64,000 bases of DNA from NCBI GenBank assembly GCA_023435705.1, contig JAEYRH010000009.1, forward strand, positions 264,572-328,571. Direction: 5' to 3'. The position numbers and the translations under genes are program-made. Shown piece by piece: positions 30,553 through 34,503 of the stretch; the first letter of the stretch is position 1, and each line of letters begins with the position of its first letter. Below the pieces are notes generated by a model. The model did no database searches and was not told the DNA's origin. It saw only the letters and a list, made by a program, of their open reading frames with translations. Source of the stretch: Bacillota bacterium (GTDB lineage: Bacteria; Bacillota; Clostridia; Christensenellales; UMGS416).

Positions 30553-31494
30553 TTGGACTGGAAGCAAATCACCGTCGCCACCACCACAGCTGGAGCCGAC
30601 ATGGTCTCGGAAATCCTCATTGAGGCGGGTGCCGCCGGCACCGCCATTGAGGACAGGGCAGAGGTGGAAGCCCAGCAGCGCCTGCCCGGTGACTGGGACT
30701 ATATTGATGAAAACATCCTGAAGAACATGGCCCTGGAAGTGCAGGTGATGGCCTGGTATCCGGTGGACAGCAGGCTTGCTGACACGCTGGTCTATATCCG
30801 CCAGCGCCTGAGCGATGTGCTGGCGATGGATCTGGGCTTTGACGCCGGCACTCTGGTGCTCACCGCCGGTGACGTGAAGGATGAGGACTGGGAAAACAAC
30901 TGGAAGCAGTATTACAAGCCCTTTGAAGTGGGCAAGCGCCTGCTGGTGAAACCGATCTGGGAGAATGCCAGCGGCAACGGCAGGATCATCATCGAAATGG
31001 AGCCCGGCATGGCCTTCGGCACAGGCACCCATGAAACCACCTTTATGTGCCTGGAAATGCTTGATGAGGTTGTGCAGCCCGGCATTGATGTGTGGGACAT
31101 CGGCTGCGGCACCGGCATCCTCTCAGTGGCGGCAGTGCTGCTGGGTGCAAAAGGAGCCGTGGCGGTGGACCGCGACCCGGTGGCCGTGTCCGCAGCGAAG
31201 ATCAACTGCGAGCTCAACCATGTGGAAGGCCTTGTGGATGCGCGGCTCGGTGACCTGATGAAGGGCCTGGCCGGTCATCCCGACCTCATTGTGGCCAACA
31301 TCATCGCTGAGGTCATCATCGCAATGGCTGCCGATGCCTATGCGGCAGTCAAGCCCGGCGGGCTGTTCCTCTGCTCCGGCATCATCCTGGCCCGTGAGGA
31401 AGCAGTGAAACTGGCGCTCCTTGCTGCCGGTTTTACGATCCTTGAGGTCAAGCACATGGGCGAGTGGGTAGCGGTTTTGGCGAAGAAGCCATGA
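30553..31494 (+). CDS. prmA: Ribosomal protein L11 methyltransferase PrmA
   Basis: TTG start after AAAGGAG. MDWKQITVATT..., FGTGTHETT, DIGCGTGILS. Position after dnaJ is conserved in Firmicutes. Confidence 0.93.
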   Translation: MDWKQITVATTTAGADMVSEILIEAGAAGTAIEDRAEVEAQQRLPGDWDYIDENILKNMALEVQVMAWYPVDSRLADTLVYIRQRLSDVLAMDLGFDAGTLVLTAGDVKDEDWENNWKQYYKPFEVGKRLLVKPIWENASGNGRIIIEMEPGMAFGTGTHETTFMCLEMLDEVVQPGIDVWDIGCGTGILSVAAVLLGAKGAVAVDRDPVAVSAAKINCELNHVEGLVDARLGDLMKGLAGHPDLIVANIIAEVIIAMAADAYAAVKPGGLFLCSGIILAREEAVKLALLAAGFTILEVKHMGEWVAVLAKKP

Positions 31495-32822
31495 ACCACA
31501 AGCGCGCCGCCATGGTCACCCTTGGCTGCAAAGTGAACTGGTATGACTCTCAGGCCATGGCCGAAAGCCTTAAGGCTGCTGGCTTTGTTTTGGTTGCCGA
31601 TGGAGAGCCTGCTGATGTCTACATTGTGAATACCTGCGCCGTCACATCAGAGGCGGAGCGGAAATCACGCCAAACGGTGCGTAAACTGCTGCGGTTGCAC
31701 CCCGGTGCCGCCGTGGTCGCTGTGGGCTGCTCGGCGCAGAAAGACCCGCATGGTTATGCCGCCATGGAGGGTTTGGCCGCCGTGAGCGGCATGGAACGCG
31801 GGGCAGTGGTGGATCTTGCGGATCGGGCTGCAGCCGGTGAGCGCGGCATCCTGGAGAAGGCTGTGCCGGTGCAGGTGTTTGAAGACCTGCCCGCCGATGC
31901 CCAGCAGGGTCACACGCGGGCTGTGTTGAAAATTGAGGATGGTTGCGACGCCCATTGCGCCTATTGCATCATCCCTGGCCTGAGAGGGGAGCCAAGGAGC
32001 CGCTCGCTGGCTTCCATCCGCAGGGAGGCGGAGGCACTGGCCGTGAGAGGCTTCCGGGAGATTGTGCTTGTGGGCATCAATCTTGGCCGGTTTGGCGCGT
32101 GCCTGACAGGGCCTGTCACTCTGGCCGATGCCGTGAAGGCTGCCAACGTGCCGGGCATTGCCCGCATCCGTCTGGGCTCGCTCGAGCCCGACGCAGTGAA
32201 TGCGGCGCTGTTGGACAGGCTGGCCTCGATCCTCCCGCTTTGCCCCCATTTTCACCTGTCACTGCAAAGCGGGTCGGCAGAAACGCTGAAACGGATGGGC
32301 CGCCGCTACAATCCGAAGCAGTTCATGGACAAGCTCCGGATGATCCGCGACCGCTGGCCCGATGTGGGCATCACCACCGACGTGATCGTCGGGTTTCCCG
32401 GTGAGACTGAGGAAGAGTTTGCCGAGTCCTGCGCCTTTGTGGCCGCAGCCGGTTTTCTGAAGGTGCATGTGTTTCCCTATTCCCGCCGGGAAGGCACCGC
32501 CGCCGCCGAGTTGCCCGGCCAGCTGCCGAAGGCAGTGAAGGAAGCCCGTGCCGCTGTAATGAAAGCTTCAGCCGCTCCTGGTGCACAGGCGTTTCTCGGC
32601 GGGATGATCGGCAAGACTGTCACTGTGCTCTTTGAGGAGGCGGTGAACGGGCAGCCTGGCTGGCTCCGTGGTTATACCTCCAATTATGTGGATGTGCTCG
32701 CCCCCGCAGATGGGCTCAAGCCCGGGGAGTTTGGCTCCGTGCGGTTGAAAGAGGCGGAGGGCGATGTTATCATTGGAGAAATCAACCAATCCTGCGGCGG
32801 AGGAGGAACTGTAGATGCCTGA
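31491..32822 (+). CDS. mtaB: tRNA t6A37 methylthiotransferase MtaB (radical SAM)
   Basis: ATG in ATGA overlap with prmA. UPF0004 N-domain TLGCKVNWYDS, radical-SAM CDAHCAYC, C-terminal TRAM-like region. Confidence 0.9.
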   Translation: MNHKRAAMVTLGCKVNWYDSQAMAESLKAAGFVLVADGEPADVYIVNTCAVTSEAERKSRQTVRKLLRLHPGAAVVAVGCSAQKDPHGYAAMEGLAAVSGMERGAVVDLADRAAAGERGILEKAVPVQVFEDLPADAQQGHTRAVLKIEDGCDAHCAYCIIPGLRGEPRSRSLASIRREAEALAVRGFREIVLVGINLGRFGACLTGPVTLADAVKAANVPGIARIRLGSLEPDAVNAALLDRLASILPLCPHFHLSLQSGSAETLKRMGRRYNPKQFMDKLRMIRDRWPDVGITTDVIVGFPGETEEEFAESCAFVAAAGFLKVHVFPYSRREGTAAAELPGQLPKAVKEARAAVMKASAAPGAQAFLGGMIGKTVTVLFEEAVNGQPGWLRGYTSNYVDVLAPADGLKPGEFGSVRLKEAEGDVIIGEINQSCGGGGTVDA

Positions 32823-33156
32823 TTGTATCTTTTGCAAAATCGCAAATGGATCCATACCATCTTCAAAAGTATATGAGGACGACAATTACTTTGCGTTCCG
32901 TGACATCAGCCCTGCGGCGCCGGTGCATGTGTTGGTGATTCCCAAACAGCATGTTGCCAATGTGTTGGAGGGCGCCGCTGTGCCCAGTCTCATCGAGGGC
33001 CTGATGGAAGTGGCAGCAAAAGTTGCCCGGCAGGAAGGGCTGGAGGAAAGCGGTTTCCGCCTGGTCGTCAACACCGGTGATGACGGGGGTCAGTCAGTGC
33101 ATCACCTGCACCTGCACATCCTGGGTGGAAGGAAGCTTGCCTGGCCTCCCGGCTGA
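32815..33156 (+). CDS. HIT family (histidine triad) protein
   Basis: 113 aa. CIFCKI, HVLVIPKQH and the HHLHLHILGG triad. Confidence 0.92.
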   Translation: MPDCIFCKIANGSIPSSKVYEDDNYFAFRDISPAAPVHVLVIPKQHVANVLEGAAVPSLIEGLMEVAAKVARQEGLEESGFRLVVNTGDDGGQSVHHLHLHILGGRKLAWPPG

Positions 33157-33185
33157 TTGACAGGCCATGCGATATCGGTTATCCT
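33157..33185 (+). promoter_or_regulatory. Candidate promoter directly after the HIT stop codon
   Basis: TTGACA (33157-33162), 17-nt spacer, TATCCT (33180-33185). The predicted start falls at the left arm of the structured element. Confidence 0.4.
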
Positions 33186-33189
33186 GATA

Positions 33190-33387
33190 TTGCAACATAC
33201 CAAATCCCTGAGAGGTGATTCAGTCCGGACGGCGCAGGCGCGCCTGCTGGAGCAGAGGGGACATCGAAACTGCACACGATGCAAACTGGCCTGTCGGCCT
33301 GTTTTGTGGTGCGTTTGATGATCCGCTCTGTGAGGTTTGAGGAATAAGCCGCAGAGCGGGAGCTCTGCGGCTTTTGGTATGTTGCAA
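33190..33387 (+). ncRNA. Candidate structured RNA element (riboswitch-like leader, sRNA or MITE) bounded by a 15-bp inverted repeat
   Basis: TTGCAACATACCAAA (33190-33204) is the exact reverse complement of TTTGGTATGTTGCAA (33373-33387). The interior has several short hairpins. A 9-bp terminator hairpin (33348-33371) is followed by TTTT. An alternative 8-bp pairing joins CCGCTCTG (33323-33330) with CAGAGCGG (33352-33359). Confidence 0.4.
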
Positions 33388-33410
33388 AGAAATGAAAGGA
33401 TGAAAACCAG

Positions 33411-34244
33411 ATGTATTTTGATTTTTCCAAATGGAGAAGGCCGGAGCCTTATGAGCCCGGCGAAGCTCAGTTCTGGACCGACCCTTACGTTGCAACCCAG
33501 ATGCTTCAGGCCCACCTGGATCCCAATACCGATGCGGCCAGCTTCCGGCCCGAGCGGATTGACGAAGTTTGTGCGTTTCTGAAAAGCAGGCTTGGGCTTT
33601 CTCCAGGTAAATCCATCGTGGATCTGGGCTGCGGCCCTGGGCTGTATTGCCGAAGGCTTGCCGATGCAGGCTGTGATGTGACGGGCATCGATTTCTCCAA
33701 ATCATCGATCGCCTATGCAATCGGCCAGGCGCGGGGCATGGCCAATGCCCCGAAATACCGGGTGGGTAACTATCTGGAATGGTTCGAGCAAGATCAATAC
33801 GACGCGGCAACGCTGATCTATGAGGACTTCGGCGTGCTGTCTCCGGCGGCCCGCAAGCGGCTTCTGGCCAATGTTTACAGCGCGCTCAAGCAAGGGGGGC
33901 TGTTCGCGCTGGATGTCGCCTCCAGCGCTGTATTCCAAAAGCTGCAACAGAAGCCTGCCCGGCATTGGGAGCACAGCTCCGGCGGCTTCTGGCGGCTCCA
34001 TAATCACCTTGTGCTGTATGAGAGGTTTTTGTTTCCGGATATTTCGGCCGCTTGCGAGCAATACGCGGTGACTGACAGCCGCACCGTGATCTATCGGAAC
34101 CACCAGACCTACTACCGGCTGGAGACCATCGCCGATGAGCTTTCTGAAGCCGGATTTTTGGTGGAAGACTGTTATTCGTCTCTTGCGGGCGAGGCTTGGC
34201 GTCCGGACTCTGAGCAGGTGGGCGTTGTCTGCCGCAAGCCATGA
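33411..34244 (+). CDS. Class I SAM-dependent methyltransferase
   Basis: 277 aa. Motif I IVDLGCGPGLYCRRLA, post-I DVTGIDFS. Confidence 0.88.
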   Translation: MYFDFSKWRRPEPYEPGEAQFWTDPYVATQMLQAHLDPNTDAASFRPERIDEVCAFLKSRLGLSPGKSIVDLGCGPGLYCRRLADAGCDVTGIDFSKSSIAYAIGQARGMANAPKYRVGNYLEWFEQDQYDAATLIYEDFGVLSPAARKRLLANVYSALKQGGLFALDVASSAVFQKLQQKPARHWEHSSGGFWRLHNHLVLYERFLFPDISAACEQYAVTDSRTVIYRNHQTYYRLETIADELSEAGFLVEDCYSSLAGEAWRPDSEQVGVVCRKP

Positions 34245-34340: not shown

Positions 34341-34370
34341 TTGACAAGAGCTTTACAATGATAGTAGAAT
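34341..34370 (+). promoter_or_regulatory. Promoter of tRNA-Gly/tuf
   Basis: TTGACA (34341-34346), 18-nt spacer, TAGAAT (34365-34370). Confidence 0.55.
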
Positions 34371-34429: not shown

Positions 34430-34503
34430 GCGGGTGTAACTCAATGGTAGAGTTCTAGCTTCCCAAGCTAGCTACGTGGGTTCGATTCCCATCACCCGCT
34501 CCA
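34430..34503 (+). tRNA. tRNA-Gly (anticodon CCC)
   Basis: Hand-folded cloverleaf. Acceptor GCGGGTG/CACCCGC, D arm ACTC-AATGGTA-GAGT, anticodon arm CTAGC-TTCCCAA-GCTAG, T arm GTGGG-TTCGATT-CCCAT, encoded CCA. Confidence 0.9.

Follow-up and report, generated by a model that had tools for sequence, protein, structure and literature searches.

The stretch of DNA analyzed here, referred to as the window, comprises 64,000 nt of contig JAEYRH010000009.1 (GenBank assembly GCA_023435705.1, forward strand, positions 264,572 to 328,571) from a Bacillota bacterium of the order Christensenellales. The genes at the locus of interest are ordered dnaJ, prmA, mtaB, a HIT-family open reading frame (ORF; 32815-33156), a 198-nt structured element (33190-33387), a gene for a 277-aa class I S-adenosylmethionine (SAM)-dependent methyltransferase, tRNA-Gly(CCC), tuf, rpmG, secE and nusG. 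The HIT stop codon TGA occupies 33154-33156 and is followed at the very next base by the -35 box of a sigma-70-type promoter on the plus strand (33157-33185), which consists of TTGACA (33157-33162), a 17-nt spacer and TATCCT (33180-33185), exactly as a preliminary description made from the letters of this DNA had claimed. Transcription is predicted to start at about G33192, the first conserved base of the outer helix of the element. The controlled gene, on the same strand (33395-34244), begins with the ribosome binding site (RBS) AAAGGA (33395-33400) and continues with the methyltransferase ORF (33411-34244), and the RBS and ATG thus lie downstream of the element, again as described. The element is real and biologically meaningful, and we suggest, with moderate confidence, that it forms the 5' leader of the methyltransferase transcript and represents a family of structured cis-regulatory RNAs that has so far not been catalogued, in which it would function as an orphan riboswitch-like attenuator.

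Folded as plus-strand RNA, the element has an energy of -104.9 kcal/mol compared with -69.6 +/- 4.3 kcal/mol for 200 dinucleotide shuffles (z = -8.2). Its ends form the helix P1, in which the 5' arm TTGCAACATACCAAA (33190-33204, with the conserved core GCAAC) is the exact reverse complement of the 3' arm TTTGGTATGTTGCAA (33373-33387), and the perfect 15-bp inverted repeat noted earlier is therefore confirmed. Between the arms and on the same strand lie (i) segment X, the conserved and purine-rich GAGAGGTGATTCAG (33210-33223), recognized by comparison with relatives, (ii) the hairpin P3 (33224-33251; TCCGG-A-CGGCGC-AGGC-GCGCCTG-CTGGA), identified by folding and covariation, with a base UCCGG/CYGGA that is near-invariant among the sequences examined, (iii) the long imperfect hairpin P4 (33252-33331), with a 5' strand at 33252-33276, a 3' strand at 33305-33331, the tip GGCC-TGTC-GGCC (33288-33299) and the conserved TGTTTTGT (33300-33307), (iv) a variable P4-P5 linker (33332-33345) in which neither sequence nor length is conserved, and (v) P5, a terminator-like hairpin with a U-run (33346-33377). 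The 3' strand of the P4 base, block C (TCCGCTCTGT, 33322-33331), is a candidate antiterminator strand that could alternatively pair with the P5 5' arm at 33352-33359. P5 itself reads AAGCCGCAGAGC-GGGA-GCTCTGCGGCTT and has 12 bp and a 4-nt loop (33346-33373), and its U-run TTTTGG (33372-33377) shares bases with the beginning of the P1 3' arm. Because this arm lies downstream of the terminator-like hairpin, P1 could form in read-through transcripts only.

The pairings proposed in the preliminary description fared unevenly. A terminator-like hairpin followed by U's is present but is longer than the 9 bp claimed, and the exact complementarity of CCGCTCTG (33323-33330) to CAGAGCGG (33352-33359) was recovered. 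A pairing of 33205-33219 with 33321-33340, on the other hand, is absent from the minimum-energy and the comparative structures, in which 33321-33331 pair with 33253-33261 at the P4 base. Among four small hairpins listed for the core, GGCGC-AGGC-GCGCC and GGCC-TGTC-GGCC belong to the consensus as the tips of P3 and P4, respectively, whereas CTGC-TGGA-GCAG and TGCA-CACGA-TGCA do not, their bases falling within the 3' half of P3 and the stem of P4. The -35 region and the P4 tip are linked by a perfect inverted repeat of 9 bp (GACAGGCCA and TGGCCTGTC, 33159-33167 and 33287-33295), which is probably a chance occurrence because its 5' copy lies upstream of the predicted transcription start.

Related elements are found at about 40 loci (given here as L numbers), all of them in Clostridia, on the same strand and directly 5' of orthologs of this one 277-aa methyltransferase, and at many of these loci the neighboring genes are unrelated to those of the window. 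Orthologs with 51-70% protein identity have the same intergenic element in mostly syntenic surroundings (including L007, L008, L012, L212, L213 and L216), and in the syntenic relatives the promoter position is unchanged and long blocks are invariant. In L215 the window's subtype occurs in a different neighborhood, beside a GFO/IDH oxidoreductase, and more distant homologs of the enzyme (~45-52% identity) in unrelated neighborhoods retain a related leader, as in L009 beside fucose isomerase and in L010 beside ychF. All 19 relatives tested have a TTGAC(A/T)-N15-19-TAnnnT (or GAnnnT) box a few nt 5' of the leader. In L007 (1534-1983) an extra 149-aa ORF with a weak DnaJ-domain match and a spacer of ~500 nt lie between HIT and the leader, which suggests that the leader travels with the methyltransferase and not with HIT.

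Scanning species-representative genomes with a methyltransferase profile yielded 80 loci, and a covariance model, R1, built from 16 leaders of the subtype called type 1 below, was run on these and on the loci collected earlier. R1 gave 23 strong matches, all on the coding strand and 100-250 nt 5' of the methyltransferase start, the window element (33212-33338, 36.5 bits, E = 5e-6) among them. The carriers of these matches all belong to the Bacillota class Clostridia, including Christensenellales/Limiplasma and Oscillospiraceae, and R1 matched nothing in methyltransferase loci from Chloroflexota, Thermoplasmata or Aerophobetes. An AT-rich version of the leader was recognized by inspection in Clostridiaceae and Lachnospiraceae (L066, L082, L083 and L086) and in the complete genome of Anaerocolumna sedimenticola CBA3638 (L090), where the leader occupies positions 2008-2476 of L090, corresponding to about 1,417,660-1,418,130 of NZ_CP048000.1. 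A sequence-only scan of metagenomes with the pattern TCTTTTCC-N14-40-CCGGA-N3-6-RTCCCYCC, which proved too loose, gave four true leaders among the matches listed (at least 120 stretches), and all four (L116, L158, L183 and L203) are followed by this methyltransferase gene; given the loose pattern and the few true matches, this unbiased sample of gene contexts is small. Three independent assemblies of the organism with protein P0002 (L004, L005 and L006, positions 1-20) start within 5 nt of each other, inside the leader P4 and ~115 nt before the methyltransferase ATG, and the contigs L022, L032, L036 and L046 likewise begin just 5' of the methyltransferase gene. These clustered contig starts could stem from heterogeneity among strains or from assemblies breaking at the hairpin.

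The leaders of the family are ~160-260 nt long and fall into three subtypes that share the order promoter, P1 5' arm, X, P3, AAAAG, P4, P5 with U-run, P1 3' arm and RBS. P4 carries the conserved UGUUUUGU across subtypes, a purine motif occurs in two or three copies per leader, and segment X reads GGAGGGAUNNNNUCCGG in most relatives and AGGUGGAAUG in the AT-rich version. In type 1, segment X is base-paired to X' (CGGUAUCCCUC), and the resulting helix, P2, closes a three-way junction whose other arms are P3 and P4. P5 consists here of X2 and X2', which are further copies of X and X', respectively. Type 2b also has P2, with X again as the 5' strand. In type 2a, the subtype of the window (n = 8), the partner strand of X is missing, and hardly any variation is seen in P5 (GCCGCAGAGC...GCTCTGCGGC) or block C (TCCGCTCTG); the P5 sequence of the window is identical in L054 and has the close variant GCCGUAGAG in L066, L082, L083, L086 and L090. 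A hairpin with U-run is located 5' of the P1 3' arm in most members and is weak or absent in L010, L017 and L020, and the RBS and ATG follow within 21-45 nt after P1 in most members and within up to ~80 nt in a few.

Individual leaders depart from this order. L015 (225-316) is without the hairpin P3, the clade of L009, L013 and L015 is without P1 and has the P2 3' strand directly followed by the U-run, and L024 and L028 are without P5, the U-run coming directly after P2. Three leaders carry insertions of 100-170 nt, which in L030 (~2060-2240) separates P1 from the core, in L048 (~2310-2400) lies inside P5 and in L090 (2284-2385) follows P5 and precedes the P1 3' arm, and P1 complementarity is retained despite the insertion in each of them.

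The comparison of relatives demonstrates that the fold is conserved by compensatory change. In type 1 (n = 23), 94.5% of the cells are paired and double changes occur in 16 of 28 pairs (65 cells), 6 of the 11 pairs of P3 among them; slid controls had only 3-7 double-change pairs. In type 2a (n = 8), 96.3% of the cells are paired and 7 of 57 pairs show double changes, four of them in P1 (of 11 P1 pairs), two near the P4 tip and one in P5. The type 1 number of double-change pairs was reached by none of 500 shuffles, and the paired fraction or covariation score of type 2a likewise by none of 500. These counts are not probabilities, since the aligned sequences are related to one another and were in part fitted to the model; the caveat does not touch the slid controls or the diversity of P1 sequences. 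Approximately 28 of the 36 members have P1 as an uninterrupted helix of 10-17 bp, more than 15 distinct P1 sequences occur, and its compensatory substitutions among relatives include ATACC/GGTAT, AGGCC/GGCCT and GGATC/GGTCC. In P5, L213 and L216 have one compensatory pair (G-C to A-U) and one change from G-C to G-U. P2 is rich in G-U pairs and minus-strand scores are far lower, which identifies the mRNA strand as the functional strand. In total, the 5' untranslated region (UTR) of the methyltransferase gene contains, on the coding strand, a conserved structured domain with covariation, as is characteristic of terminator-controlled riboswitches and attenuators, and an intrinsic-terminator-like hairpin with U-run before the start codon (the 12-bp P5 in the window), as is characteristic of attenuators.

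The folding data show competing complementarities that could serve a terminator/antiterminator choice. In duplex calculations block C pairs with the P5 5' arm at -12 to -20 kcal/mol versus -11 to -16 kcal/mol with the P4 5' strand, and it is also able to pair with X (-7 to -12 kcal/mol). Complementarity in type 1 links X', on the 3' side of the closing helix, to X2, which provides the 5' arm of the terminator. When type 1 transcripts were cut just before the 3' arm of the terminator, the X':X2 hairpin was preferred in the three leaders in which the truncation fell at X2, and the full leaders are nearly bistable between X:X' plus X2:X2' and X:X2' plus X':X2. Type 1 therefore has the textbook layout of a terminator-type riboswitch.

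Combining the comparative data with these foldings, we suggest the following mechanism. Transcription would start at the conserved promoter, the first bases of the RNA being the P1 5' arm, and the nascent RNA would fold into X, P3 and the long P4. If the 3' strand at the base of this sensor fold (block C in the window subtype, X' in type 1) stays in it, P5 would form by the U-run and transcription would stop. Alternatively, block C or X' would pair with the P5 5' arm, no terminator would form, and RNA polymerase would read into the methyltransferase gene. An effector that stabilizes or disturbs the sensor fold would set the balance, and this effector is probably a small molecule linked to the reaction of the enzyme. 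In type 1, a factor that stabilizes the P2/P3/P4 junction would free X2 and in that way favor termination. In read-through transcripts the P1 3' arm would pair with the 5' end and clamp the whole leader, which may protect or process the mRNA; P1 could accordingly serve 5'-end protection, as a processing stem or as part of the sensor. What the leader does, including whether and in which direction it controls termination, what kind of effector it answers to and what P1 contributes, we infer from anatomy and gene association only. The preliminary description had raised a cis-regulatory leader with terminator/antiterminator logic as one of its options, and this option is the one that the covariation, the fixed coding strand and the position always directly 5' of one methyltransferase family support, as do block CCGCTCTG and the P5 hairpin, which are invariant in the eight relatives of the subtype.

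Several observations weigh against this attenuator model. In the window (33190-33376) the terminator conformer has an energy of -88.4 kcal/mol compared with -74.0 kcal/mol for the forced antiterminator, a difference of 14 kcal/mol, and in folding calculations the P4 base is retained even before the P5 3' arm is transcribed. Given that the terminator fold is so much more stable, switching in the window would need an active effector, or else the hairpin could be a partial constitutive terminator. Judged from these folding models, the default of the window subtype is predicted to be termination, with read-through by means of an effector or of the weak 4-U tract. Moreover, several members have a short or broken U-run (4 U in the window, UUUCCGUUU in L007), and L010 and L020 have no U-run after P5. 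Block C and the pairing strands of P5 are invariant across the eight sequences, which leaves the antiterminator pairing without covariation support. Likewise, the helix sequences of X, the P3 base and P5 are unusually conserved for a small-molecule aptamer and would fit recognition by a protein too. Finally, P1 encloses the terminator, an arrangement that no standard riboswitch model requires.

Among the alternatives, the most serious is that the leader is a protein-dependent attenuator in which the methyltransferase or another RNA-binding protein would bind, for instance, the GGAGGGAU-type repeats or the P2/P3 junction and set termination, a mode of control akin to that of ribosomal-protein leaders or to the one put forward for the 23S-methyl motif (RF01065). 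The leader is tied to a single protein family, the conservation of helix sequences (X, UCCGG/CCGGA and GCCGCAGAG) is unusual, and the two or three copies of the purine motif per leader would suit a protein ligand. There is also a precedent, in that the 23S-methyl motif, which consists of two plain hairpins of which the last is a terminator and which occurs only in Lactobacillales before rRNA methyltransferase genes, was proposed to be cis-regulatory with autoregulation suggested (Weinberg et al. 2007, PMC1950547). The enzyme encoded here, however, points in another direction. In Pfam and NCBIfam it has generic class I methyltransferase matches only, all below the family cut-offs, and its best sequence match in the PDB is 9rfr (E = 1e-16), an entry annotated as a ubiquinone biosynthesis O-methyltransferase for which no paper was found. 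The nearest structures to its AlphaFold2 model (pLDDT 92.9) are the small-molecule and peptide N- and C-methyltransferases CypM, CcbJ, PsmD, NmbA and glycine N-methyltransferase (GNMT), and RNA methyltransferases are weak and distant matches only (RlmA by sequence, an mRNA cap methyltransferase by model). A domain search detected no RNA-binding domain in the methyltransferase. Judged from the model, the enzyme looks like a small-molecule methyltransferase, and these neighbors make a small-molecule effector more likely than autoregulation by an enzyme that modifies RNA. In addition, Chloroflexota homologs have no leader, and the protein therefore has no need of it. On balance we regard a protein-dependent attenuator as unlikely, albeit worth keeping in view.

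A second alternative is that the 5' UTR releases a stable non-coding RNA, e.g. by cleavage in P1, that acts with the methyltransferase or is modified by it rather than regulating it. P1 joins the 5' end to a segment past an internal hairpin in the manner of the closing stems of stable RNAs and of rRNA processing stems, it survives the insertions in L030, L048 and L090, and it reaches 15-17 uninterrupted bp in L083 and L090; furthermore, the promoter is strong and conserved. The authors who described the smtA motif, a further RNA upstream of a methyltransferase gene, judged simple cis-regulation to be unlikely in that case (PMC11109978). Against a released RNA, there is no terminator after P1, the RBS and ATG follow closely behind P1 at the distances given above, L009, L013 and L015 are without P1, and type 1 holds a complete terminator/antiterminator set. 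A released RNA is, in our view, a rather improbable outcome.

A divergent member of a known RNA family, i.e. 6S RNA or a TPP, cobalamin, SAM or S-adenosylhomocysteine (SAH) riboswitch, is highly improbable. This reading draws on the fragments CUGAGA and GGUG..UCC, in which a likeness to the TPP and cobalamin aptamers had been seen by eye, on the paired ends and on the SAM-using gene downstream, and on nothing else. The comparison with Rfam proposed in the preliminary description was made by means of cmscan and returned no relevant family: with Rfam 15 (4227 families) at gathering thresholds the whole window gave tRNA only, the element alone at E <= 10 gave as its sole match a chance snoRNA at 21 bits, and eleven relatives at E <= 1 or 0.5 gave nothing over the leader. 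This excludes TPP (RF00059), cobalamin (RF00174), SAM, SAH, T-box, 6S (RF00013) and 23S-methyl (RF01065) as families, and the helix layout fits neither 6S RNA nor any of the TPP, cobalamin, SAM and SAH riboswitches. The earlier suggestion of a 6S-like small RNA fails in addition because the element is multibranched without a central bubble and has no terminator after the paired ends, and in the window the RBS lies within 10 nt after the closing stem, unlike in an independent 6S gene. The possibility, also raised initially, of a miniature inverted-repeat transposable element (MITE) or similar mobile element inserted between promoter and gene is the least credible, for although the perfect 15-bp inverted-repeat termini and the breaks inside the element in three assemblies of one relative might recall one, BLASTN and nhmmer found only the element itself in the 64-kb window, searches of plasmid and phage collections gave no match to it, its flanks ATA and AGA form no target-site duplication, its arms vary by compensatory substitutions between species, its orientation and downstream gene are constant in every copy, and its G-U pairs indicate an RNA on one strand.

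Two further ideas were considered and abandoned. A short ATG-initiated ORF in P4 shares 'ACFVV' with L009, and a leader peptide was rejected given that L023 has no in-frame start and that 1-2 nt indels occur among the relatives (by eye). A resemblance of AGCAAAC...GAUACC to part of 16S helix 24 was dropped as rRNA mimicry because it has no computational support and the enzyme is not RNA-methyltransferase-like.

The riboswitch-like attenuator can be compared with known systems. The terminator-type 'OFF' riboswitches of Bacillota (SAM-I/S-box, TPP and FMN) are likewise located in the 5' UTR on the coding strand, have a conserved multi-helix fold with covariation, a variable expression platform and a closing helix of which the 3' strand is complementary to the 5' arm of a terminator-like hairpin with U-run. 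The present family differs from them in having no Rfam match, an extra outer helix P1 that extends past the terminator and unusually conserved helix sequences, and in the window subtype there is no closing helix P2 and the P4 base takes the switching role. Like the 23S-methyl motif, it is a structured leader that within a group of Firmicutes consistently precedes methyltransferase genes of a single kind, and its last hairpin is terminator-like where that of the motif is a terminator; in contrast to that motif, its fold is larger (P1, X/P2, P3, P4 and P5), its hosts are Clostridia, its enzyme looks like a small-molecule methyltransferase and cmscan gave no RF01065 match. The smtA motif 'Soda Lake RNA' (Narunsky et al. 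2024, PMC11109978) is longer than 350 nt, occurs only in Thioalkalivibrio (Gammaproteobacteria) and lies upstream of a gene for a class I SAM methyltransferase; going by the description in that paper, the present leaders are shorter (~160-260 nt), are found in Clostridia and have a terminator-like hairpin. Of published RNAs these two motifs come closest, and the present family is distinct from either in size, fold and host. P1 resembles rRNA-type processing stems and 5'-protective mRNA stems in that it is predicted to join the transcript's 5' end to a segment far downstream and so to enclose a folded domain, but unlike them it has only 10-17 uninterrupted bp in most members. An exact-string search of open-access text for the conserved sequences of the motif found nothing, and an unnamed entry in the large automated RNA catalogs is possible. 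The RNA family is new and its kind, a terminator-type leader, is known, the unusual feature being P1 around the terminator.

We consider it possible, though short of probable, that these RNAs of ~200 nt constitute a new riboswitch class with three subtypes, widespread in anaerobic Clostridia, that senses a small molecule tied to the uncharacterized methyltransferase and in which the outer helix clamps the mRNA 5' end beyond the terminator, leaving the read-through form closed and possibly protected or processed. Orphan leader RNAs whose structure is conserved to a comparable degree have time and again opened the way to new ligands and to metabolism that had been overlooked. The methyltransferase family is widely found in anaerobic digesters, in sediments and among Clostridia of the gut, and identification of the effector would probably reveal the role of the enzyme too. 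A cultured carrier with a complete genome exists in A. sedimenticola CBA3638, which makes the question accessible at the bench. A covariation-conserved outer helix around a terminator lies outside the standard picture of riboswitches and may show how read-through transcripts are stabilized or processed.

Two observations concern the neighboring genes. The mtaB-like radical-SAM ORF (31464-32822) overlaps the HIT ORF (32815-33156) by 8 nt, which suggests translational coupling of the two. Downstream of the methyltransferase gene, a near-consensus promoter (TTGACA-18-TAGAAT, 34341-34370) lies 5' of tRNA-Gly(CCC) (34430-34503), just upstream of tuf, and the position of this tRNA gene is likewise kept in L007 and L008.

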